A DNA stretch of 26,065 nt, taken from Raphidiopsis brookii D9 (GTDB lineage: Bacteria > Cyanobacteriota > Cyanobacteriia > Cyanobacteriales > Nostocaceae). A model generated the notes under the pieces. That model was not told the origin of the DNA. It saw only the letters and a list, made by a program, of their open reading frames with translations, and did no database searches. Of this stretch, positions 8-17,208 are shown one piece after another (the stretch's first letter is position 1; each line of letters begins with the position of its first letter). Made by a program: the position numbers and the translations under genes. The DNA is taken from contig ACYB01000008.1 in the NCBI GenBank assembly GCA_000175855.1, forward strand, positions 1 to 26,065. The letters are read 5' to 3'.

Positions 8-1528
8 TTACTGCGACTGAAAAATTAACCCCACTTCATGACTGTTTTTCCCTGGTTCTCCTCTATATTTTTGTGCATAGTTACATTCCCGTATCTGTTT
101 GAGAGCTAGGTTCTCTTTCACATTCTCTCCATCTACTACTTTGATTTCCATCACGTAAATATGATCACCTAAGATGGCAGTTATGTCCACTTGACCATAA
201 TTGGTGATATCTTCGGGGATGATGCGCGCATTTAAGGAACTCAAGAAAGCATATAGTACAGAAGCGTAGTAGCCCTCGAAATTAGTCAGGTCGTTGTTGG
301 TGAAGTTGCGCCATGGTATGGAAGCAAATAGTCGTCTGACCGTGTCCAAAAACCCATTCACATTACCTTGAAACAAGTATTCATATAAAGGTCTCTGAAT
401 ACCCAATTTCTCTTCTACAAAGTCGGTGTAGGCATTGACTAATTGGTCTCCCAGGGCGACTTTCACTTCCTGATTGGGGATTTTCAGTCGGAACATGTAA
501 CGTTCCATAGCAATAAAGGTGCTCTCAATAGTCAAATACCCCGATTGGAATAATAGGGTGACTGGGTTAATTCGTTCTATTTCAAAGGACTTTAAAATCT
601 CCTCGGTTACTTCCAGATGCTCCAGGTTGGGGAGGAAGTAGCGGTTGGTCTGAAACAGCTTAATTAAAAAGGTGGGGTTCCCTGTCTCAAACCAGTAGTT
701 CCCATACTCCATTCCCTCCCGGATAAACAGTAGGATATCATAGGGGTTATATACGGAATCACCACGCCACGAGTATCCATTATACCAGAGGCGCAGTTTG
801 TCCCAGTCTACTCCTTGTAAGTGCTGGGCAAAGGTTTGCTCCAAATCTTCCTGGGTGTACCCACAAATGGTGGAAAAGTCCCTACTGATGGTAATGTCGG
901 TGAGTTGATTTAACCCACTAAAAAGACTGACTTTGGAGAATTTGGTGACCCCAGTCATGAAGATGAACTGAATGTTGGCATCCTGTTGCTTGAGAACGGA
1001 GTATAGATTCTTGAGTCCTTCTCTCATTTCACCAGCAATAGATGGATTGTCGATGTTGTCCAGGATGGGTTTATCGTATTCATCTACCAGTACCACAGCA
1101 CGTTCTCCATATTTTGCCATGGCTTTACGAATCAGAGTTCCTAATTTTCCTGGTATATCTGTTGACTCGTAGGATACACCCAGATGCTCTGCATTTTCCT
1201 GCAGAATATCCAGTATACGCAGATCTAACTCTTGTCGGTTTTTTAATACCCCGCCAGCAAAGTCTATTTTAATGACTGGGAATTTTCTGCTCCAGTCCCA
1301 CTGGTCATAGATATAAAGCCCCTCAAACAATTTCTGATTCCCCTCGAAAATCTCCTTCAGGGTATCTACAAACAGACTTTTGCCAAAACGCCGAGGACGA
1401 GATAAAAAGAAGCGTCCAGGAATACGTATCAGACGGTGAGCTATTTCCGTTTTGTCCACATAGACGCAATTGTTTTCCCGCAGCACACTCAGAGTGTTAA
1501 TTCCCAATGGGAGATTTTTGGGGTTCAT
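8..1528 (-). CDS. Orphan ATPase-nuclease: AAA-ATPase-like N-terminal domain plus C-terminal PD-(D/E)XK (PDDEXK_9-like) domain
   Basis: 506-aa ORF with stop at 8-10. The N-terminus has LSRPRRFGKS (P-loop-like) and AVVLVDEYD (Walker-B-like). The C-terminus has GQVDITAILGDHIYVMEIKV (D...ExK core) followed by ALKQIRECNYAQKY. The architecture is recalled from memory, not searched. Confidence 0.8.
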   Translation of the reverse strand: MNPKNLPLGINTLSVLRENNCVYVDKTEIAHRLIRIPGRFFLSRPRRFGKSLFVDTLKEIFEGNQKLFEGLYIYDQWDWSRKFPVIKIDFAGGVLKNRQELDLRILDILQENAEHLGVSYESTDIPGKLGTLIRKAMAKYGERAVVLVDEYDKPILDNIDNPSIAGEMREGLKNLYSVLKQQDANIQFIFMTGVTKFSKVSLFSGLNQLTDITISRDFSTICGYTQEDLEQTFAQHLQGVDWDKLRLWYNGYSWRGDSVYNPYDILLFIREGMEYGNYWFETGNPTFLIKLFQTNRYFLPNLEHLEVTEEILKSFEIERINPVTLLFQSGYLTIESTFIAMERYMFRLKIPNQEVKVALGDQLVNAYTDFVEEKLGIQRPLYEYLFQGNVNGFLDTVRRLFASIPWRNFTNNDLTNFEGYYASVLYAFLSSLNARIIPEDITNYGQVDITAILGDHIYVMEIKVVDGENVKENLALKQIRECNYAQKYRGEPGKNSHEVGLIFQSQ

Positions 1529-1731: not shown

Positions 1732-2569
1732 ATGATGAATACAAACGAGTTAAAATTTATGCTCAAGTTATTGGGGTATCAAACTTATCGCGGTAACTGG
1801 AGTTTGTTTAAAGATAAAGAAAAGACAAAAGTTTGCCAAGAGTTGGAGAGAAGAGAATACGTAGATTACTCGCGGGAAATCGTTTCAGCACAAATATTGC
1901 CTGCCGGTAAAGCTTTATTACAAATTGAAACATCTCAATTACCCATAACAGCAGAAGAACTCAAAGTGCTGGAAAAAATAGCTAAAGCTGGTAAAAAAAT
2001 TGCCCCCAGTGCAATAAAAATTACAAAATTAAAAGTCCGATCAAAAAGAGGTAATCCTAAAAACCCTAGGTGAAAGGGGTTTGATTAAAACAGAATTGAA
2101 GATTAAAAAAAACCAAGCCGAGGTTTGGTTAACGGATAGGGGATTGGAGTTTTTACGGAGTGAGTATATACCCAGTAAAACTTATAACCCAGCAATAAGT
2201 TTGGAACTTCTCGGTAATTACATACGGTTTTTACGTAAGAATGCAATCCCAGCAGACCCATCAGGAGCTAAACCGGTAGTTGATAAAATCACCGACAGAA
2301 AAATCACTGACGAGGAAATTTTACAAACTATTAAAAATCTAGATAGAGAACTGGGTACGGAAAATTATTTACCCATCTTCCATCTTAGGGAAAAACTACA
2401 ACCACCCCTATTAAGAGATGAAGTGGATCAGGCATTATATAGATTACAAAAAAGTGACAAGATCGACTTTAGTTCCCTGCAAGAGGTCACTGCTTATACT
2501 CCAGAGCAGATTGATGCGGGAATTCCCCAGAATATTGGTGGTCAACTATTTTTCATTATGGTTAATTGA
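1732..2569 (+). CDS. Hypothetical protein made of three winged-helix-like units. It is split into ORFs 1732..2073 and 2081..2569 by a 1-nt frame change in the A-run 2031-2034, and reconstructs to ~278 aa
   Basis: The frame of ORF 2081 is open back to 2033 and reads KSDQKEVILKTLGERGLIKTELK. This continues ...AIKITKL of ORF 1732 if one A is removed. Three repeated units look like wHTH: VCQELERREYVDYS..LPAGKALL; VILKTLGERGLIKT..LTDRGLEFL; ILQTIKNLDREL..ALYRLQKSDKIDF. No family recognised. Confidence 0.55.
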
Positions 2570-2668: not shown

Positions 2669-4807
2669 ATGACACACATCGATGAGATTATCAAACGCCA
2701 GGTTAACCCCTTTGACTCTATAGAGTTAAAGCCCAGTGATTTTTGGGAAGAAGAGCAAGACTCTGCAGGAATGGTGGAATCAATTCACCAAGAAGCAATA
2801 GACCAAATTACAGAGTTACTTAACCTGGTAGCTCAGGATCATCGTAGTCGGACAGTCTTGTTACAAGGTAATTCCGGATCTGGTAAAAGTTACCTCTTAG
2901 GTCGGCTGAAGCGAAAACTGAATTCCAAGGCATTTTTCGCCTATATTTTCTGTAATTGGAGTAGCTCTGGTTATATCTGGCAACATATTCTGCGTCGTAC
3001 TGTGGATAGTTTACTTCAAGTTCCCGATGGTGAAAAAGAATCCCAGTTAATGTTGTGGTTACAAAGTTTGACTGCATTTACCACTATGGGTAATACGAAA
3101 AAACAACCAATACTTAATCTCAACTTTTGGCAAACCCTAAAAAGCGATCGCCAAAAATTCATCAAACACCTAAAGGACACTTACAAAAAAGTCAGGATTT
3201 ATAATCCCGATGCCTTTTTCGGAGTATTGCATGATCTAACAAATCCTGACTTATATGATATAGCTGCTGAATGGCTAAGGGGAGATGACCTGAGTGAAGA
3301 GTCAATGAAGCTAATTAAAGTTAAGAGTTCTATTGACACAGAAGAAGGTGCCAAGAATATTTTGGCAAACTTTGGCAAAATTTCCAGCCAAACCCAACCA
3401 ATAGTCCTATGTTTTGATAATTTGGATACCATGCCTCAATTACCCGGTGGTTTACTAGATATCCAACCATTTCTGAATGTTAACACCAGCATCCACGGTG
3501 ATAAGCTAAAAAATTTCCTAGTAATTATCAGTGTTATTACCAATACCTGGAACAGGCATAAGGACCGGATTTATCAAGCGGATACAGCGCAAATACATCC
3601 AGTAATTGGACTGAAGAATATTAGTATAGAGCAAGCAGAGGCACTATGGGAGTATCAACTAAAACCATTACACAAACTAGCCCATCCCATACCTAAATCT
3701 CGTCTTTTCCCGCTAGATAGAGGCATTTTAGAAGAATACTGCCCTGGTGGCAAAACCATGCCTAGAAATGTATTAGAGCTGGGTCGGAGCGAATATCAAA
3801 GATATAAGAAGACATTAGTTGAGGGTGGAAATTATCGAGATAAAAGCCAAGAGCAAAAATATACAAATACATCAGTCCAGAATGGAAATGATGGTAATAA
3901 GAAGCAAGATCAAGAATCTAATAGTACATTAGTTGAGAGTGGAAATAATGGTGAAAAACCAGACAACAAAACAGAGAAACACTTTCTTTTATCATGGCAA
4001 AGTGAATATAAAAAAACTCAGACAAAATTCACCAAAATCTCTTTGTTGTCATCATCTGACCTAACCCAGATGCTAGAATATGCCATCTGTGCCTTGAATG
4101 TTCCTGGAATTGAAACCAAATTGATCAGTGGTAAATATGCTACCTATTCCTTTAGTTATATTCATCCTGAAAATAATCAAAGAATTGGTATTGTCTGGAC
4201 AGAAGATCCTAATATGAACAGCTTCTATCATATTATGAATGCTTGTCAAACAGCGATCGGAGGAAAGTCTTGTCAAACCATATACCTAATTCGGAATGGG
4301 GATGTGGGAAAACCTCACACATCTGGCAATCAAATGTACAGACAGATTTTCGTAAATACCAATCATCGTCATGTTAAGCCGAATTTAAAATCGGTTCAGT
4401 ATTTAGCAACCTACCAAAGTTTGGTAAACTCTGCCAAATCGCAAGATCTAGTGGTTAATGGTGAAACAATTGATTTACCGAGATTAGAAGAATTGATTAG
4501 AGAGTTAAAAGTTCTGCACAAATGTGATTTATTACAGGATTTAGGAATTGTTGAGAAAAAGAATGTTGATAGAGAGGTTAATGATGGAGGGAATCGACAC
4601 GAAGTGAAAGAATACATATTTACTTTGCTTGGAACCCAGCAAATGATGTCCGTGAGTGTTTTGATTTCTACTACTAGCAGTCATTTTTCCGACATTCAAA
4701 GAGATGAGATTGAACAGTTAATTAATTCATTGTGTCAAGAAAACAAAGCTAAAATTATTGACCCAACATGCAAACAAGAGGAGCAAATAATTTGTTGGTG
4801 TGCTTAA
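2669..4807 (+). CDS. 712-aa P-loop / AAA+-like NTPase with an unassigned C-terminal domain
   Basis: Walker A GNSGSGKS (2867-2890), Walker-B-like IVLCFDNLD (aa 245-253), sensor-like LVIISVITNTW. An N/Q/K-rich linker contains an internal DNA duplication. The C-terminal ~270 aa have no motif I recognise. Same strand as the wHTH gene, 99 nt downstream of it. Confidence 0.75.
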   Translation: MTHIDEIIKRQVNPFDSIELKPSDFWEEEQDSAGMVESIHQEAIDQITELLNLVAQDHRSRTVLLQGNSGSGKSYLLGRLKRKLNSKAFFAYIFCNWSSSGYIWQHILRRTVDSLLQVPDGEKESQLMLWLQSLTAFTTMGNTKKQPILNLNFWQTLKSDRQKFIKHLKDTYKKVRIYNPDAFFGVLHDLTNPDLYDIAAEWLRGDDLSEESMKLIKVKSSIDTEEGAKNILANFGKISSQTQPIVLCFDNLDTMPQLPGGLLDIQPFLNVNTSIHGDKLKNFLVIISVITNTWNRHKDRIYQADTAQIHPVIGLKNISIEQAEALWEYQLKPLHKLAHPIPKSRLFPLDRGILEEYCPGGKTMPRNVLELGRSEYQRYKKTLVEGGNYRDKSQEQKYTNTSVQNGNDGNKKQDQESNSTLVESGNNGEKPDNKTEKHFLLSWQSEYKKTQTKFTKISLLSSSDLTQMLEYAICALNVPGIETKLISGKYATYSFSYIHPENNQRIGIVWTEDPNMNSFYHIMNACQTAIGGKSCQTIYLIRNGDVGKPHTSGNQMYRQIFVNTNHRHVKPNLKSVQYLATYQSLVNSAKSQDLVVNGETIDLPRLEELIRELKVLHKCDLLQDLGIVEKKNVDREVNDGGNRHEVKEYIFTLLGTQQMMSVSVLISTTSSHFSDIQRDEIEQLINSLCQENKAKIIDPTCKQEEQIICWCA

Positions 4808-4838: not shown

Positions 4839-5217
4839 CAAAGGATGTACAATAATAGAGGTGAAGCAAAAACTTTGTTGCCTAGGGGTATACAAATGCA
4901 TATTTCAGATGGTGAAAGGTTTATGATTTCCATGGTTAGCGATTTGGCTCGCAGAATGGCCATTGCCAACCCTAAAATTAGAAAATCCATTGAAAGGCAA
5001 GGGGATTATTTTAATTGATGAAATTGACCTGCATTTACACCCCCGCTGGCAAAGAATGATAGTACCAAAATTAGCAGAAATTTTTTCAGCTTGTCAGTTC
5101 ATCTTTTCCACTCATTCCCCTAGTATTATAACACATGTTCACCCGGAAAATATTTTGTTATTGAAATTGGAAAAAGGAGTTATTTCAGTTAGTAACCCAT
5201 CAAATTCCTATCTTTCT
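4839..5217 (+). pseudogene. 3'-terminal third of an ABC/AAA_21-type (OLD/abortive-infection-like) ATPase gene; the N-terminal ~2/3 is missing
   Basis: The frame opening at 4839 reads GIQMHISDGERFMISMVSDLARRMAIANPK, which includes an ABC signature-like SDGE. After a 1-nt shift in the A-run 4974-4977 it continues as LENPLKGKGIILIDEIDLHLHPRWQ (Walker B/D-loop) and FIFSTHSP (H-loop). No Walker A region lies upstream; the 712-aa gene ends at 4807. Confidence 0.6.
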
Positions 5218-5250
5218 GCTATTTATCAAATGATTGATAATAATAATGTA

Positions 5251-5460
5251 GCTTTAGGTAGCACCAAAGAGCAATTTGAGCGGGAGGTTAAATGGGCAAT
5301 GGCAATCAAACTTTTTGAAATGAAGTGGCTTTCATCGGGCATGGCTGCCAGTTTATTAGGGGTAAACAGGACTACCTTTTTAATGAAACTTGCTGATTAC
5401 AATATTCCGCTTATTGACCTAACAGAAGAAGAATTATTATCTGATTTAGCAAATGCCTAA
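5251..5460 (+). CDS. UPF0175-family antitoxin-like module, forming the C-terminal part of the chimeric ORF 4963..5460
   Basis: EREVKWAMAIKLFEMKWLSSGMAASLLGVNRTTFLMKLADYNIPLIDLTEEELLSDL matches my memory of the UPF0175 HTH antitoxin pattern. It is fused in frame to the ATPase remnant, and its own N-terminal ~20 aa are absent. Confidence 0.55.
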   Translation, partial: ALGSTKEQFEREVKWAMAIKLFEMKWLSSGMAASLLGVNRTTFLMKLADYNIPLIDLTEEELLSDLANA

Positions 5461-5551: not shown

Positions 5552-5607
5552 TTACGTCTAATCTAACCTTGACGTTAAGGGCAGAGCTGCCTATAATTAT
5601 AGCAGTA
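5552..5607 (+). promoter_or_regulatory. Repeat copy R1, carrying a near-consensus sigma70 promoter: TTGACG at 5569-5574, 17-nt spacer, TATAAT at 5592-5597
   Basis: Boxes and spacing read directly. It points rightward at the exonuclease-Cas4-FtsK gene, ~140 nt upstream of the ATG at 5748. About 80% identical (40 of 50 aligned columns, manual count) to R2 at 8406. Confidence 0.6.
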
Positions 5608-5747: not shown

Positions 5748-6280
5748 ATGCACTACCTAACAGATGTCACGGAAATCTACCGGCAAATTTCTCAGCTCAC
5801 CAGATTTAGGACCTTGTGGTTAGATACAGAAATAGCTAACTGGAATACTCCATACCCAAGATTATCCCTCATTCAAGTACTGGCTTATCCCAGTGATTTA
5901 ACGGGTGAATTCGCCTATATTTTTGATGTCTTAGATAAACCTGATTTGACCGCCTATTTTATCCAGCATATCATGGTTAATTCTAACATTCAGAAAGTAT
6001 TTCATAATGCAGATTTTGACTTAAAATACTTAGGCAAAAATCAAGCTCAAAATGTTGTTTGCACCTTCAAACTAGCCAAAAAAATTAATCGGAAAGTTCT
6101 CCAAACTACTAACCTAAAACTTAAAAACCTTAGCTGTTGAACTGTGCCAATTTTCCGATGTAGATCCAGAAATGGGGACAAGTGATTGGGGAGAACGTCC
6201 TCTTTCTTCCAGACAACTAAAGTATGCTGCCATGGATGTGATCTATTTAGCAGCTGTTCATCATCGTTTACTGGAAATAT
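5748..6280 (+). CDS. Domain 1 of the composite: RNase D/WRN-like DEDDy 3'-5' exonuclease
   Basis: ExoI LWLDTEIA, ExoII FHNADFDLKYL, ExoIII LKYAAMDVIYL. The ExoIII motif lies after the frame break at 6123-6127. Confidence 0.75.
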
Positions 6281-6408
6281 CTGACCCCAATGCTGTCAGT
6301 ACTATTTTTAGTATTAGTTTTGATAGTAGTTTTAATGGCAATTTTGATAATAGTAACGATAGTAATCTTAATAACTGGGATAACCGGGTAAATCTCGAAA
6401 GAGAAAAT

Positions 6409-7266
6409 TCTCCTTTCAGTCCCACAAAACTGAGATTAGCTTTTGAGTGTCCTCGGCTATTTTATCTCAATTACAAATTTAATTGTAAGTCCATATTTAT
6501 TCCAGCAGATTCCACTCCTGGGATTGGTAATATTTTTCATCAATTGGCAGATAATTTAATTGATGTATTACTTACCGATCCGAGCTTTACAAATTTATTT
6601 ATTCCGCCTTCAGACCAACTAGATGTGGAGAAATTGGCAGCTCAAATTCAGAGATTATTCTATCAAATTAGCTTTTTCCCCTATTTACAAACAACTATCT
6701 CACAGGAAAAAAGTAAAGGAGTCTTATTATATAAAGTTTGGGCTAGATTACAAGAGCTAATTAAAAAGATCACTAAGTTGCTAGTTGATAATCGACGTTA
6801 TTGTACTGCCAAAGCATTAATGGCTAATACTTTTATTAATGAAGATCGCAATTTAGAATATGATTTCAATTTACCAGACGGTACAAAGGAACTAATTAGG
6901 GGTAAATATGACTGCTTAGTGTTTAGTTTTGCCAGCCAAAGGCTTTCAGTCATAGAATTTAAAACTTATCAACCGATGGATATATCGGGACAATTAGCTC
7001 AGACTGCTATTTATAGCTATATGCTATCCCAGCGAAAAAAAATGCCTGTTGATTCTGCTGTTTATTGTTTTTTGCCTGAGTTTCAGGAATATACATATAC
7101 ATGGGAACAGCTAGAAAATACTACTCATCAAATAATTCATCACAAGTTATTACAAATGCGACAGTGGTCGGGTTGGGAATCCCCTCAACCAAATCCACCT
7201 CCAATGACAACCCAGACCCATTTGTGTCAAATTTGTCCTGAACAACAAAGGTGTCAAACTTTTTTT
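6409..7266 (+). CDS. Domain 2 of the composite: Cas4/AddB-like PD-(D/E)XK nuclease with a 4-Cys (Fe-S type) signature
   Basis: N-terminal Cys in LAFECPRLFYL; D in RGKYDCLVF; ExK in VIEFKTY; QxxxY in QTAIYSY; C-terminal CX2CX5C in HLCQICPEQQRCQ. Confidence 0.7.
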
Positions 7267-7353
7267 GCTGCTGAGGTTACCACTCCCCAATCCACTCAAG
7301 CTATTCAATCTATTCAACTCCCTAAAATCAATGAAATCCCAGAACCTAAAATT

Positions 7354-8404
7354 GTTGACGCAAATGCAATAGAAGTGAAACTAGTCAACACCTTGGCATC
7401 TTTTGGTATTGGTGTAGAGTATCAAGGTACTATGGTAGGACCAGCATTTATACGAGTAAAACTGAAACCTCATTTGGGTGTCAAAGTCAATTCTTTTGTT
7501 GAAATTGTCTAAAGATTTACAGGTGCAATTAGAGCTAGAAAACCCACCCTTAATAGCATCCCAAGCTGGCTACGTCAGTGTTGATTTACCTCGTAAAGAC
7601 CGACAAATTGCCAGGTTTGAAGATTATATCCAAAGGAATTTTTACCTCCAACCGCTAAGTTAGAAATTGCCCTTGGTGTGAACATTGATGGTCATTTACT
7701 AGAAGCAGATTTGTCTGATTCTAACACCTGTCATTTTTTGGTGGGTGGAACAACAGGAAGTGGCAAAAGCGAGTTTTTAAGATCCTTGCTGCTCAGTTTA
7801 CTCTATCGACATTCTCCTCAACACCTAAAAATTGTTTTAGTGGATCCTAAAAGAGTGACTTTTCCTGAATTTGAACGAATTCCCTGGTTGTATTCACCAG
7901 TTGTCAAAGATAGCGATCGCGCTGTAGAAATAATGGGTGAATTAGTAGCAGAAATGGACTCTCGATATCAAAAATTTGAGCTAGTTAAATGTCCGAACAT
8001 AACGACTTATAATCAAAATTCAGGTAAAATTTTACCCCGTTTAGTTTGTATATTTGACGAATATGCGGACTTCATGGCAGAAAAAGAAATCCGAAGTGTT
8101 TTAGAGCAGAGTATCAAACGTTTAGGAGCAATGGCCAGAGCAGCGGGAATACATCTAATTATTTCCACCCAGCGTCCAGAAGCTGGTGTTGTCACCCCCA
8201 TCATTCGTTCAAACCTCCCCGGAAGAATTGCCCTGCGCACCTCAAGTGCTGCGGACTCTCAGATTTATTTTAGGTGCCAAGATATCACAAGCAGCAGATT
8301 TATTGGGTAAAGGGGATTTAGTTTATCCAGTTGGTTCCCAATTACAAAGAATCCAAAGCCTATTTGCCGAAAAAATCCATCTTGACATGTTCACAAGTAT
8401 TTAA
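7354..8404 (+). CDS. Domain 3 of the composite: FtsK/SpoIIIE-like DNA translocase motor (alpha+beta), with no TM region and no gamma domain
   Basis: GPAFIRVKLKPHLGVKV (alpha-domain-like), Walker A VGGTTGSGKS, Walker B LVCIFDEYADFM, GIHLIISTQRP, RIALRTSSAADSQ, LLGKGDLVY. The protein ends ~25 aa after GKGD. Confidence 0.75.
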
Positions 8405-8405
8405 C

Positions 8406-8460
8406 TTACGTCTGATCCAACCTTGACATTTAAGGAAAGACGCGCCTATAATGATTGGAA
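8406..8460 (+). promoter_or_regulatory. Repeat copy R2, carrying a consensus sigma70 promoter: TTGACA at 8423-8428, 18-nt spacer, TATAAT at 8447-8452
   Basis: Read directly. It starts 2 nt after the stop of the FtsK-like gene and points into the 3' end of the convergent nitrile hydratase operon. No rightward gene follows. Confidence 0.55.
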
Positions 8461-9634: not shown

Positions 9635-10213
9635 TTACGCGGCTTCGATATACACTTCAAAAATGTCGTTGTAGTAGAATGAATTGGGCTCAGTCAACGA
9701 TTCTGGCCAAATATCCTCATTCTTGAAGGCGAGACTATACACAGGCATGGGTGTGCCAATCCCGTCTTCCGTGGGAAAGAAATAGGTAAACGCTCCTTCG
9801 TACACTCGCACCACTTCCGCCACATACCCCTTCAGATGCCCAGGCAACCGGCTATGGTCAGCTGGTGAGACATTTTTGATGCGAACCCGATCTCCCACAC
9901 TAAATTTTGGTGGGGTGGGAAGCTCTCGCATCGGTGAGTCCCCTTCTCGCAAATACTTCAAGACTTGGGCGTCGATTTCGGGAGCATCTCTAACTGGTAA
10001 GGGTGCCGCCGCTTTTTCGCTGTTCTCTAGCATTTCAGCCGTGCGAGCGTCCAGTTCTTCCTGGGTGATGTACCCCTCGGAAATAAAGAAACTGGAAATC
10101 CCCCCTAACCATTTTTCGTAGTAGCGCAAACGGAAGTAGTCAAAGGGGTGCATGCCTTCAGCTCCCATGCGCAGATGTCCCCAGGTCCAAAAGCTCTTAA
10201 AGGTGGTGGGCAC
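9635..10213 (-). CDS. nthB: Nitrile hydratase beta subunit, apparently lacking ~35 N-terminal residues
   Basis: LRMGAEGMHPFDYFRLRYYEKW, PPKFSVGDRVRI and FYYNDIFEVYIEAA align with remembered beta-subunit blocks. The canonical M(N/D)G(I/V)HD.GG...GP...EP.F..WE start is absent. The only start is GTG 10213, with poor SD spacing, and it lies inside the upstream ORF. Confidence 0.7.
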   Translation of the reverse strand: MPTTFKSFWTWGHLRMGAEGMHPFDYFRLRYYEKWLGGISSFFISEGYITQEELDARTAEMLENSEKAAAPLPVRDAPEIDAQVLKYLREGDSPMRELPTPPKFSVGDRVRIKNVSPADHSRLPGHLKGYVAEVVRVYEGAFTYFFPTEDGIGTPMPVYSLAFKNEDIWPESLTEPNSFYYNDIFEVYIEAA

Positions 10214-11034
10214 GTCCTCGATTGCATAGTACGGTTGGCGTTGTCCATGTCGAGAATACCTTTCATACGGAAAAGATCAGGCCCACGGGCCTGCACCAAT
10301 CGATAGAGCCAGCGATTAAATTGTTCGCCGTTGACGACTCCTGCTTCCTGAATCGAAATCGAGGTCACGGTTTCGTCGTGGTCATGGGCAGCTTCGTTGA
10401 GAAACTCTGGATCAATAGTGAGGGCATTCTTTAGATCGAAGGCACTCAACCCCAATACCTTATCCAGTGAGATTTGACAGTGTTGTGTCCGGTGGATTTT
10501 GGTGAGCCCATTCATAATCCGAATGCGCTGCTCTAGCTCTTCTAGAATAGGTGGTGACACCAGATCGACTTTATTCAGCAAAATCACATCAGCGAAAGCA
10601 ATTTGTTCTTGGGCTTCGCTACTGTCCCAATGCTCCCAGATGTATTTGGCATCGACGACGGTGACAATGGCATCTAGCAATAGGCGAGATTGCATCACCT
10701 CATCCACCAAAAACGACTGAATGACGGGAGCTGGATCGGCTAACCCCGTCGTTTCAATTATCAGGTAGTCAAAATCTTTAGAGCGCTCCATCAAATTGCT
10801 GACAATGCGGATTAGGTCACTCCGCACTGTGCAACAGATACAGCCATTGTTCATCTCAAAGATTTCTTCATCAGCATCAATCACCAATTGATTATCAATG
10901 CCAACCTCTCCAAACTCGTTCACAATAACGGCGATGCGCTTACCGTGCTGAGCTGTCAAAATATGGTTGAGCAGCGTGGTCTTACCAGCCCCTAAATACC
11001 CGGTTAAAACAGTAGTCGAAATTAGACTTTGCAA
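10105..11034 (-). CDS. COG0523 (CobW/Nha3-like) metallochaperone GTPase whose C-terminal domain is cut short and runs out of frame into nthB
   Basis: TTG start with GGAGG 9 nt upstream. P-loop GYLGAGKTTLLNHIL and the CICC metal motif (GCICCTV) are present. The CobW_C-like part reaches ...FRMKGILDMDNANRT. The last ~45 aa (MQSRTCPPPLRAFGPG...) are an off-frame read of nthB. Confidence 0.75.
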   Translation of the reverse strand: MQSLISTTVLTGYLGAGKTTLLNHILTAQHGKRIAVIVNEFGEVGIDNQLVIDADEEIFEMNNGCICCTVRSDLIRIVSNLMERSKDFDYLIIETTGLADPAPVIQSFLVDEVMQSRLLLDAIVTVVDAKYIWEHWDSSEAQEQIAFADVILLNKVDLVSPPILEELEQRIRIMNGLTKIHRTQHCQISLDKVLGLSAFDLKNALTIDPEFLNEAAHDHDETVTSISIQEAGVVNGEQFNRWLYRLVQARGPDLFRMKGILDMDNANRTMQSRTCPPPLRAFGPGDICAWELKACTPLTTSVCATTKNG

Positions 11035-12997: not shown

Positions 12998-14297
12998 CTA
13001 CAAATTACTGAGTACCTCTTTCACCACTTCCAAAGTGTGATTTATATCTTCTTCTGTATGAGCTAGGGAAGTAAAACCAGCTTCAAATTGGGAAGGAGCT
13101 AGATAAATACCACGTTCCAACATGGCCCGATAAAACCTACCAAATTTGACTGTGTCTGATTTTTTTGGCATCCTCATAATTATGCACGGGACCTGATGTG
13201 AAAAATAGACCAAACATAGCGCTGATACTACCACCACACACACTGTGTCCCGCTTCCTTGGCAATTGTTAGCATCCCATTAACCAATTTCTGGGTGATTC
13301 TCTCTAAATAATCGTAGGTTCCTGGTTTCTGTAATAGTTCTAATGTTTTAATTCCAGCAGTCATGGCCAGGGGATTTCCAGACAGGGTTCCTGCTTGATA
13401 TACTGGACCTGCTGGAGCAATCATGGACATGATTTCTCGACGACCTCCATAAGCTCCTACGGGTAATCCCCCACCTATCACTTTCCCTAGGGTGGTTAAA
13501 TCAGGGGTAATGCCAAATTTTGCTTGGGCCCCACCATAAGCAATTCGGAACCCGGTCATTACTTCGTCAAATACTAGTAATGCTCCGTTTTCTTGAGTAA
13601 TTTCTCTTAACCCTTCTAAAAACCCCGCGTCGGGAGCAATAAATCCAGCATTCCCTACTACTGGTTCTAAAATTACCCCAGCTATTTCTCCTGGGTTTTG
13701 TTGAAATAGTGCTTTTACCGCTTCTAAATCATTAAAAGGGGCTGTTAATGTACCTTTAGTGGCAGATTTTGGCACTCCCGGTGAATCTGGTAACCCTAGG
13801 GTAGCTACTCCTGAACCTGCTTTGACTAAAAACATGTCCGCGTGCCCATGGTAACAACCTTCAAACTTGATAATTTTTTCCCTATTGGTGTAAGCTCGCA
13901 TTAGTCTCAGCACTGCCATACAAGCTTCTGTACCAGAATTAACGAATCTTACCATTTCAATACTGGGGACAGCATCAATTACCATTTCTGCTAGGATATT
14001 TTCTAGCACACAGGGAGCGCCAAAACTTGTACCTTTTTCTAGAGCTTGGTGTAGGGCACTAATTACTTCTGGATTGGCGTGTCCACAAATAGCCGGACCC
14101 CATGTGCCTACATAGTCAATGTATTTGTTACCATCCACATCCCAAATATGGGCACCTTTAACCTTATCAAATACTATTGGTTGTCCACCAACTGATTTAA
14201 AGGCGCGTACGGGTGAGCTAACTCCTCCTGGCATTAAATTTTGAGCTGCTGCAAAGATTTCTTGGGATTTTGTAGTTTGAATAGTAGTGTCTACCAA
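12998..14297 (-). CDS. hemL: Glutamate-1-semialdehyde 2,1-aminomutase, interrupted by one extra nt in the 7-nt homopolymer at 13160-13166
   Basis: N-terminal 386-aa ORF ([22 protein letters not shown]...) plus ORF 12998..13264 (..[41 protein letters not shown]). Removing one A gives ...[18 protein letters not shown].., 432 aa. TTG start with AGGAG upstream. Confidence 0.9.
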
Positions 14298-16156: not shown

Positions 16157-17208
16157 ATGGGTGTTTCCTCAACGGTTCCTCTCCTGCTCAGAGCTGCACG
16201 GGGTGAAAAGGTAGATCGTCCCCCGTGTGGATGATGCGTCAAGCGGGACGTTACATGAAAGCTTATAGAGATCTGCGGGAGAAATATCCTTCCTTTCGGG
16301 AACGCTCAGAAATTCCTGAGGTGGCCATTGAGGTCTCCCTCCAACCCTGGAGAGCTTTCCAACCCGACGGAGTAATTTTATTTTCCGATATTGTCACTCC
16401 CTTACCTGGAATGGGTATTGACATGGATATTGCGGAAGGAAAAGGGCCAATTATTTTTTCGCCTATTCGCACTCAAAAACAAGTTGATGGGTTACACCCA
16501 CTAGATCCAGAAACCGCTTTACCTTTTATTCGTCAGATTTTAGGAGCGTTACGTCAGGAAGTAGGTAGTGCATCGACCGTACTAGGCTTTGTTGGCGCAC
16601 CCTGGACTTTAGCAGCTTATGCAGTGGAAGGAAAAGGCTCTAAAACCTATTCTATAATTAAGAATATGGCTTTCTCAGATTCTAATATTCTCCATCAGTT
16701 ATTAGACAAGTTGGCAGAATCTATAGCCGTATATATCCGCTACCAAATAGATTGTGGCGCCCAAGTAGTACAAATGTTCGATTCCTGGGCAGGGCAATTA
16801 AGTCCCCAAGATTATGATATCTTTGCCTTACCCTACCAGAAAAAGGTGTTTGAGTTAGTGAAAAGAACCCATCCACAAACACCCCTAATTTTGTTAGTTA
16901 CGGGTAGCGCGGGACTGTTGGAAAGAATGGCCACCTCTGGTGCGGATATTCTCACCATTGACTGGACTGTGGATATGGCAGATGCACGTAGAAGATTAGG
17001 TAATAACGTTAAGGTCCAGGGAAATTTAGATCCAGGGGTGTTATTTGGGTCAAAGCAGTTTATCCGCGAGAGAATTTTAGATACAGTTCGCAAAGCTGGC
17101 AATTGGGGACACATACTTAATTTGGGACACGGAGTGTTACCAGAAACACCAGAAGAGAATGTGGCTTTTTTCTTTGAGACTGCCAAAAACCTTCATGTTT
17201 CGGTGTAG
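16157..17208 (+). CDS. hemE: Uroporphyrinogen decarboxylase, with one nt missing in the C-run 16220-16224
   Basis: ATG 16157 gives [23 protein letters not shown] and then goes off frame. ORF 16225 continues [11 protein letters not shown]. The canonical motif is ..[22 protein letters not shown]. Adding one C gives a 350-aa protein. Confidence 0.9.

Follow-up and report, generated by a model that had tools for sequence, protein, structure and literature searches.

Do the five consecutive open reading frames (ORFs) at positions 5748-8404 of contig ACYB01000008.1 of Raphidiopsis brookii D9 (GCA_000175855.1) form a single gene, and does its product act alone? The window analyzed here is the whole stretch of 26,065 nucleotides (nt) of this contig. 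An earlier sequence-only reading had joined the ORFs into a fusion of an exonuclease, a Cas4-like nuclease and an FtsK-type DNA pump. We found that they are one gene, here called gene C, and that it stands third in a cassette of three genes conserved among cyanobacteria. With a probability of about 55%, we read its product as the translocase-nuclease effector of an RcaD-like/Orc-CDC6-like/FtsK cassette of the "capture" type. The features of the window that carry this reading are the following (aa, amino acids; indel, insertion or deletion).

1732..2569, forward strand: gene A, RcaD-like, about 277 aa, split into ORFs 1732-2073 and 2081-2569, with a 1-nt homopolymer indel at 2031
2669..4807, forward strand: gene B, intact, 712-aa putative Orc/CDC6-type (AAA_16/KAP/NACHT-like) P-loop NTPase in the RcaG position
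5748..8404, forward strand: gene C, Exo-Cas4-FtsK fusion, 884 aa after correction, with indels at 6123, 7494, 7639 and 8264
5748..6276, forward strand: DEDDy 3'-5' exonuclease domain of gene C, RNase D/NrnC-like, aa 1-176 (PF01612 and PDB matches)
6415..7257, forward strand: Cas4/AddB-type PD-(D/E)XK nuclease domain of gene C with a four-Cys motif, aa 223-503 (PF12705)
7372..8329, forward strand: FtsK alpha and beta (RecA-like motor) domain of gene C, without gamma, aa 542-860 (PF17854, PF01580)

One gene encoding a predicted soluble translocase-nuclease

The ORFs at 5748-6140, 6172-7512, 7478-7663, 7678-8310 and 8186-8404 occupy frames 0, 1, 2, 1 and 2, respectively. In the three-frame translation, every change of frame falls within a short A/T homopolymer and a sensible peptide resumes in the next frame. 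Deleting A 6123 (in A5), T 7494 (T4) and T 8264 (T3) and inserting a T at 7639 (T5 to T6) gives a frame of 2655 nt, corresponding to 884 codons plus stop. Two references with about 99.5% DNA identity to the window were aligned, Cylindrospermopsis raciborskii CENA303 contig NBYN01000032 (L001) and an independent Logan contig (L002), and between 5539 and 10230 the sole indels against them are these four positions. The corrected product differs from the intact 884-aa protein of CENA303 (P0001) in 3 of 884 residues (V165I, Q529E, K639E). Nine substitutions separate the two genes, six synonymous and three non-synonymous, with no premature stop codons. The four edits and the CENA303 alignment thus bear out the joining of the ORFs into one frame, and a protein search settled whether orthologues are intact, as the earlier reading had asked, with hundreds of intact ones.

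The same reading had called for a domain search on the corrected protein. Pfam gave four domains, all above their curated cut-offs: DNA_pol_A_exo1 (residues 4-176), PDDEXK_1 (223-503), FtsK_alpha (542-614) and FtsK_SpoIIIE (635-810). The exonuclease family PF01612 scores 91 bits against a cut-off of 23.6, and the PDB matches of this domain are NanoRNase C/diDNase proteins (NrnC/RNase D-type, E-values down to 1e-12). The motifs LDTEI (25-29), HNADFD (86-91) and YAAMD (159-163) are the Exo I, II and III signatures of the DEDDy type, and D26, E28, D91, Y159 and D163 are invariant in 19 orthologues.

In the second domain, PF12705 scores 60 bits. The best PDB match of a profile of this region is the Cas4 protein SSO0001 (4ic1, E = 1e-3), and the profile also weakly matches the AdnAB nuclease, including its C-terminal Cys motif. 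The core residues D388, E403/K405 and Q418/Y422 are invariant in 19 close orthologues, and the cysteines C234, C493, C496 and C502 in 18 diverse family members, down to 27% identity. This is the layout of Cas4/AddB-type Fe-S nucleases, and binding of a cluster is predicted. Two family members (P0128 and P0131) have lost the D/ExK residues of the nuclease, yet retain all four cysteines, which suggests that the Fe-S module may have a structural or sensing role of its own.

The motor domains score 37 bits (PF17854) and 145 bits (PF01580), and the motor matches FtsK in PDB (2iuu, E = 1.7e-49). Walker A lies at 666-674, Walker B at 769-775 and ISTQRP at 805-810. Within them, the Walker A residues G667-K673, the Walker B pair D770/E771 and T807-P810 of TQxP are invariant across the family, also down to 27% identity. 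No transmembrane (TM) segment was detected in gene C, either by hydropathy (the highest 19-aa Kyte-Doolittle mean is 1.09) or as a Pfam match to the FtsK 4TM domain. FtsK_gamma gave no Pfam match either, and the protein stops about 25 residues past the conserved GKGD...RxQ end of the motor. All the catalytic signatures that had been named from the translation are therefore at their expected positions in the corrected protein, and hydropathy and Pfam confirm that membrane anchor and gamma domain are missing, as had been claimed.

Databases label this protein "DNA translocase FtsK". Its motor has its nearest relatives in cellular FtsK and the SspH C-terminus. As in cellular FtsK/SpoIIIE/SftA, the motifs are intact, and the alpha and beta domains align with FtsK of P. 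aeruginosa and E. coli (E≈1e-49). However, gene C has no 4TM anchor, linker or gamma (KOPS/XerD) domain and carries two N-terminal nuclease domains instead, so that the annotation "cell division protein FtsK" is misleading. Hundreds of cyanobacterial genes with this annotation are probably mis-named in the same way, being soluble translocase-nucleases with two partners.

A search of 1.84 billion representatives indicates that the core of the family is Cas4-FtsK, with a variable N-terminus consisting of an exonuclease, YbjN, an exonuclease plus a protein kinase, or nothing. In P0123, P0131, P0126 and P0128, the exonuclease is exchanged for a YbjN-like domain or a Ser/Thr kinase domain is added. 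A motor-only FtsK protein, sharing 39-40% identity with the gene C motor, is encoded by two Cylindrospermopsis phages, RM-2018a and Cr-LKS4:

MH636380.1, 44020-45009: phage FtsK motor-only gene
OQ625504.1, 44929-45942: phage FtsK motor-only gene

A conserved cassette with a hypervariable middle gene

With the Cas4-like region as query and one genome per species, 306 genomes were found to encode a relative, and the best 80 of the 306 were studied by tblastn and ORF calling. All of them belong to the cyanobacteria, namely to Nostocales and to Microseira, Argonema and Plectonema, and strains of Tolypothrix, Dolichospermum and Anabaena carry the cassette. B adjoins C in 77 of the 80 loci, with a median gap of 27 nt and overlapping ends in some; the order A-B-C is kept in 75, and in 76 the length of C is 830 aa or more. 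Trichormus variabilis and Dolichospermum compactum have the three genes directly adjacent and followed by a ParA-like gene, here gene D:

L003:12682-13566, L004:12662-13546 and 42 further loci: gene D, 294-aa ParA/CbiA-type ATPase with a KGGVGKT Walker A

The trio is also found outside this set. The conjugative megaplasmid pPSE7367.01 of Pseudanabaena PCC 7367 carries A, B and a C without the exonuclease domain, with the stop of B overlapping the start of C; A and B are clear orthologues (hhalign probability of 100%, 40-41% identity each). Among 72,556 plasmids, this copy is the best match (74% of the query) and the sole one reaching the Cas4 region. In a distant metagenome-assembled genome (L092), whose C is about 30% identical, C is preceded by a 291-aa ORF and then a 669-aa KAP/AAA_16 protein, all with overlapping ends, and that B matches the profile of the cyanobacterial RcaG-like B with 97.8% probability (E = 1e-12). 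Two other distant loci have Schlafen/AlbA_2-HATPase_c_4 genes adjoining C, one of them with an IS66 insertion. An IMG/VR scan with the Cas4 region returned no relative.

The sequence-only reading had taken gene C for a self-contained anti-plasmid or anti-phage effector encoded by a single gene, or for a DNA-processing enzyme of a mobile element. Two observations agree with it: in Cylindrospermopsis, C is parted from B and comes with its own promoter-like element, and one metagenomic lineage has C without A-B within 5 kb. B adjoins C in 77 of 80 species, the stop of B often overlapping the start of C, and this speaks against a gene that works alone, as does the A-B-C order in 75. The only plasmid copy that reaches the Cas4 region also has A and B. 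The mobile-element version, at least in a simple form, finds no support in the largely syntenic, vertical inheritance of the Nostocales locus or in the IMG/VR scan, which gave no relative. We consider this explanation very improbable.

Pairwise identities from 83 loci, together with sliding windows along the three genes, revealed that B behaves unlike its neighbors. The identity of C tracks that of A (r = 0.81) and D (r = 0.73) but hardly that of B (r = 0.32), and in 69 of 171 species pairs with C at least 80% identical, B is less than 55% identical. Between species with C 90-97% and D 95-99% identical, B reaches 47-57%; two Dolichospermum species, for instance, share 96.7% in C, 95.2% in D, 83.7% in A and 48.0% in B. 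The divergent tract includes all of B and the last 40-80 residues of A, sometimes also the first 40 residues of C, while in some pairs it ends inside B, whose last ~100 residues are again 90-100% identical. Recombination breakpoints lie inside A, B and C, and clustering at 70% identity separates 22 groups of B vs 7 of C.

These alignments indicate that B is an old polymorphism exchanged by recombination between close relatives. Specificity or sensor modules of conflict systems typically show such a pattern, and it is unusual in genes of repair or the cell cycle. Swapped as a cassette among near-identical neighbors, B could be the seat of target specificity or of escape from inhibitors.

Gene A is named "transcription factor RcaD" throughout by NCBI and at times a Holliday-junction resolvase or ArsR-type regulator by JGI. 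Its intact 277-aa orthologue (L001 460-1293) has no Pfam match. Sub-threshold winged helix-turn-helix (wHTH) matches occur in two or three places of the protein, to HTH_45 in 16 of 24 members and to MarR- and Z-alpha-type proteins in PDB, and we suggest that A is probably a multi-winged-helix, DNA-binding protein. In gene B, AAA_16 scores 37.5 bits against a cut-off of 32.6. All 24 orthologues compared match this family (the "Orc1-like AAA ATPase domain" of UniProt) and 12 of 24 match BrxC_BrxD, with AAA_22, NACHT and KAP also appearing; the putative assignment of B to the Orc/CDC6 clade is by the AAA_16/BrxC_BrxD family matches alone. Neither A nor B had a significant match when profiles were run against the PDB sequences, and for A no similarity to DndG or SspB was found in PADLOC or PDB. 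The hypervariability of B and the putative identity of the partners of C with rcaD-rcaG are two points that may be new.

A second A-B pair, without C, is found at a different chromosomal site in other C. raciborskii strains (L086-L088, e.g. GCA_002893185). It consists of an RcaD-like protein of 272 aa (70% identical) and an AAA_16 protein of 706 aa; next in line is either an AAA+ gene with a Y4kK/S8-peptidase gene or a fragment of a DDE transposase. The A-B-C locus itself is variable between C. raciborskii strains, and its distribution is patchy.

Capture system, repair machine or promoter accessory

The closest described counterpart is a class of "HerA/FtsK capture systems", predicted as anti-invader defence in passages of a 2024 paper in Nucleic Acids Research (PMC10853773) and restated there in 2026 (PMC12839542). 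The passages of the former list as parts an AAA+ ATPase of the Orc/CDC6 type, an active restriction endonuclease (REase), a HerA/FtsK motor and a wHTH domain; the Orc/CDC6 protein has an inactive REase inserted before its C-terminal wHTH. According to the same passages, one set of these motors bears an FtsK-alpha domain "captured" from cellular FtsK, a separate protein with several wHTH domains belongs to the neighborhoods, and in some of them the translocase bears a fused 3'-5' exonuclease (PMC10853773). In the mechanism proposed there, the Orc/CDC6 protein localizes the apparatus for restriction, and interception of the selfish element falls to the translocase (PMC10853773, PMC12839542, as far as these passages go).

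A-B-C agrees with every item of this inventory, although the inactive REase and wHTH of B and the wHTH fold of A are only putative. An FtsK-alpha translocase stands beside the Orc/CDC6-type ATPase gene in 77 of 80 loci, and an active-type REase and an exonuclease are part of the motor polypeptide. The logic described in those passages, localizing on DNA, pumping and cutting, would be the same. The three-domain combination had seemed unlike any named system to the earlier reading; passages of PMC10853773 do describe Orc/CDC6, REase and HerA/FtsK together, in some cases with a fused exonuclease. For B, the AlphaFold2 (AF2) model has a predicted local distance difference test (pLDDT) of 65-83 only at residues 640-712, in an H-E-H-H-E-E pattern that we tentatively read as a C-terminal wHTH. 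Residues 482-541 form a low-confidence strand-strand-strand-helix-strand that would be compatible with an inactive-REase insert.

In a capture-type cassette, gene A would recognize DNA and B, as an Orc/CDC6-like switch or loader, would localize or license the complex. The hexameric FtsK ring of C would then pump duplex DNA toward its own N-terminal nucleases, which could degrade the two strands with opposite polarities. Plasmid or phage DNA would be intercepted in this way, as predicted for Orc/CDC6-coupled "HerA/FtsK capture systems" in passages of PMC10853773 and PMC12839542. A translocase-nuclease is the natural reading of C, and defence is plausible, so that these two parts of the earlier proposal of a translocase-coupled DNA shredder stand, while its single-gene character does not.

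Several signs of the conflict-system type speak for defence: the polymorphism of B, the variation of the C N-terminus, the Schlafen/IS66, PtuA-like and PF09820/PDDEXK_9 neighbors and the extra A-B pairs. The polymorphism of B and the N-terminal swapping of C, taken with the plasmid copy and the variability between C. raciborskii strains, tip the balance toward a defence-type function. The cassette offers a tractable test of the purely computational "HerA/FtsK capture" hypothesis, and it may be one of the obstacles that conjugation and plasmid maintenance meet in cyanobacterial genetics.

The points that weigh against the capture-type reading are of different kinds. Membership in the class of PMC10853773 would follow from matching domain lists, compared with passages of that paper, and those passages mention neither cyanobacteria nor an Fe-S Cas4-type REase such as the four-Cys nuclease of gene C. 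The class is purely computational, and no experiment on any member was found in the literature. PADLOC 2.0 has no model for the system; its matches to C are at the domain level only, A has none and those of B cover little beyond the P-loop region. The AF2 models, built on shallow alignments (identity of at least 60%), have a mean pLDDT of 43 for B and 32.5 for C. Passages of PMC10853773 and PMC12839542 speak of "mobile gene neighbourhoods", whereas the Nostocales locus is syntenic, single-copy and housekeeping-flanked, with largely vertical inheritance, which gives it the look of a resident cellular function rather than of a defence island. The link to RcaD/RcaG and the hypervariability of B are likewise not in these passages. 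Gene D lies within 1 kb downstream of C in 44 of 80 loci with 77-95% identity, far above A-C. In one metagenomic lineage (P0003, C 71% identical), C is beside recR with no A or B within 5 kb.

Some of these points would suit a housekeeping role in DNA-end processing or chromosome maintenance, which we regard as unlikely. A-B-C would then be a resident HerA-NurA- or RecBCD/AddAB-like machine of polyploid filamentous cells, resecting or clearing double-strand ends or trapped chromosome copies, in cells many of which are without RecBCD. Known end-resection machines pair dual-polarity nucleases with a motor, and the two nucleases and ring translocase of C mirror them. HerA-NurA and AddAB/AdnAB/RecBCD share with C an ATP-driven motor and nucleases for both strands, with a nuclease of the AddB/AdnAB/Cas4 Fe-S type. 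The C motor is, however, an FtsK-type ring in one polypeptide and not a helicase of superfamily 1 (SF1) or HerA, and its partners are wHTH and Orc/CDC6 proteins instead of Mre11/Rad50 or NurA. The vertical, syntenic inheritance beside the highly conserved ParA-like gene, the lineage with recR and the absence of relatives from viral contigs in the IMG/VR scan agree with housekeeping, and recBCD is often missing from larger cyanobacterial genomes, e.g. Anabaena sp. 90 (PMC5101192). A hypervariable B and exchanged N-terminal domains of C are atypical for repair genes. The distribution is patchy even among C. raciborskii strains, Cas4 catalytic residues are lost in some lineages and one copy is plasmid-borne. 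Model strains, PCC 7120 among them, also seem to be without RcaD, judging by Table 2 of PMC2799420 alone.

Gene D itself, being far more conserved than A-C and within 1 kb in 44 of 80 loci, is unlikely to be a fourth subunit. The Cylindrospermopsis locus has no gene D, and a GC-rich (guanine plus cytosine) nitrile-hydratase island takes its place.

The name of gene A raises another point against capture. RcaD of Tolypothrix (Calothrix) PCC 7601 has 285 aa and binds the cpc2 promoter as a factor of phycobilisome operons, and rcaG, downstream of rcaD, encodes a putative ATPase thought to aid this binding (PMC2799420, citing Noubir 2002). Gene A resembles it in name, length (about 280 aa) and the ATPase gene that comes next; the published role, regulation of phycobiliprotein operons, differs, and the likeness here is one of name, length and gene order. 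As an accessory of such regulators, C would be a co-transcribed DNA remodeler acting at promoters. The RcaD name and the cpc2 binding are compatible with this, and a phycobiliprotein lyase gene adjoins the Pseudanabaena cassette. However, the cassette is present in many genera, with the B-C pair even in the distant L092, and two catalytically intact nucleases are hard to square with promoter regulation. In Lyngbya, the RcaD homologue 7968, which has an RcaG-like neighbor, was pulled down with an unrelated promoter region, and gel shifts also showed it to bind DNA (PMC2799420). The accessory role thus has very little probability.

It is tentative, though a serious possibility, that RcaD and RcaG are themselves the DNA-recognition and Orc/CDC6-type loader subunits of a resident, vertically inherited FtsK-nuclease capture machine. 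Specificity would then reside in B and the A C-terminus, and the phycobilisome effects would be secondary or a later domestication. In the literature covered, which does not include Noubir et al. 2002, no paper was found tying rcaD-rcaG to a third, FtsK-nuclease gene. The work on rcaD-rcaG, more than 20 years of chromatic-adaptation regulators, is set in a new context.

Known defence systems were also compared, and the PADLOC run that the sequence-only reading had recommended gave matches to single models (SspH, mad8, HerA, Cas4, PtuA), none of which amounts to a known system. DndFGH/SspFGH share with A-B-C a tripartite set of wHTH, NTPase and translocase-nuclease, and the SspH model matches C at residues 540-861 (E = 2e-65). 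The other domains of DndH/SspH are absent from C (SspH models have ~1560-1770 positions), B matches SspF at the P-loop only (E = 0.005) and no dnd/ssp modification genes are nearby. Membership was rejected, since the motor alone matches (positions 1408-1739 of 1766 in the SspH model). A CRISPR-linked Cas4 was rejected as well: TIGR00372 gives 18.3 bits against a cut-off of 65, with no cas genes in L001 or in other loci examined.

State of the locus in strain D9 and its surroundings

Is gene C alive in this strain? The following features of the window bear on this, in comparison with CENA303.

4845..5460, forward strand: remnant of an inserted PtuA-like AAA_15/AAA_21-UPF0175 gene, with a 720-bp deletion at 4903 and a 1-nt indel at 4974
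4903: 720-bp deletion, inside the PtuA-like AAA_15/21-UPF0175 gene
5537/5539: ~504-bp deletion, which removes the DUF3368 gene
5552..5600, forward strand: upstream copy of a ~70-nt direct repeat, with TTGACG-17-TATAAT at 5569-5597
8406..8455, forward strand: downstream copy of the ~70-nt repeat, just past the gene C stop, with a perfect TTGACA-18-TATAAT at 8423-8452
10230/10231: 918-bp deletion, which removes the nitrile hydratase beta N-terminus, the DUF1097 gene and the CobW C-terminus
~13000-14297, reverse strand: Aminotran_3 gene, read as hemL, with a homopolymer indel at 13160
16157-17208, forward strand: hemE (uroporphyrinogen decarboxylase), with a homopolymer indel at 16220

Against CENA303, the window has eight single-base indels (2031, 4974, 6123, 7494, 7639, 8264, 13160 and 16220), all of them changes of homopolymer length. 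The one at 16220 (C5 vs C6) places the first 23 hemE codons out of frame with the conserved VWMMRQAGR motif. The one at 13160 (T7 vs T6) replaces the conserved C-terminus of the Aminotran_3 gene, which its sequence identifies as a putative hemL (glutamate-1-semialdehyde aminomutase). The products of hemE and hemL are needed for chlorophyll and haem (tetrapyrrole) synthesis and are expected to be essential. Since indels of the same type break both, the assembly very probably contains homopolymer-length sequencing errors.

On the other hand, of the eight indels, four fall within gene C, which accounts for 16% of the aligned length (P≈0.03); a Poisson estimate based on the housekeeping part would give about 0.7 there. 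The 720, ~504 and 918 bp deletions in neighboring genes, the last of which leaves the truncated ORFs 9635-10213 and 10105-11034, are unlikely products of base calling, and loci of the defence type are often lost. The cassette could therefore be a decaying relic, with four real frameshifts in C, one in A and the deletions in the neighbors. Against a truly dead gene stand the homopolymer type of all eight indels, two of them in hemE and hemL, the predominance of synonymous substitutions in C (6 vs 3) without premature stops, and an island-versus-rest comparison of indels that is not significant (P=0.09-0.21). The odds between sequencing errors and very recent decay are roughly even, and we place a truly dead gene slightly below an even chance. 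Sister strains have gene C intact, so its status in D9 leaves the nature of the gene unaffected.

The order in CENA303 is A (277 aa), B (712 aa), a 444-aa AAA_15/21-UPF0175 gene, a DUF3368 gene (166 aa), C and the nitrile-hydratase cluster on the opposite strand. The module inserted between B and C is thus intact in L001, and the PADLOC match of its first gene to PtuA has an E-value of 6e-36. This PtuA-like/UPF0175 plus DUF3368 insertion is specific to Cylindrospermopsis and is followed by the separate promoter-like site of C. As a possible history, a toxin-antitoxin-like module would have been inserted between B and C in this genus, and C would have gained a promoter-like repeat. The position of gene C between toxin-antitoxin debris and a foreign GC-rich island had been recognized from the window itself, and both the debris and the downstream nitrile-hydratase island (48-53% GC) are indeed seen.

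The two copies of the repeat lie on either side of gene C, and each bears a sigma-70 consensus that is near-perfect or perfect. Among 96 loci compared, L001 and L002 have both copies, and the 94 others lack them. Because the repeat is confined to Cylindrospermopsis loci, the most suitable reading of the element at 5569-5597 is that it arose in this lineage as a result of the insertion by which B and C were uncoupled, and the upstream copy is a candidate lineage-specific promoter of gene C. The near-consensus promoter once assigned to the gene is present as TTGACG-17-TATAAT, but such sites are not commoner in the region than in shuffled sequences (12 vs 12.4±3.8). An Rfam scan of the window, the repeat included, gave no match, and hence none to a CRISPR-related RNA family. 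The downstream copy faces a stretch without a long ORF, antisense to a nitrile-hydratase accessory gene; a small RNA might be transcribed from it.

Relative to CENA303, the window carries a 5-nt insertion (TTTAG) at 2623-2627, between A and B, where a short tandem motif has gained one unit. Since no homopolymer is altered, this is probably a real strain difference. Directly upstream of gene A, the window encodes a 506-aa protein with PF09820 (predicted AAA-ATPase) and PDDEXK_9 domains:

8-1528, reverse strand: uncharacterized PF09820/PDDEXK_9 ATPase-nuclease gene

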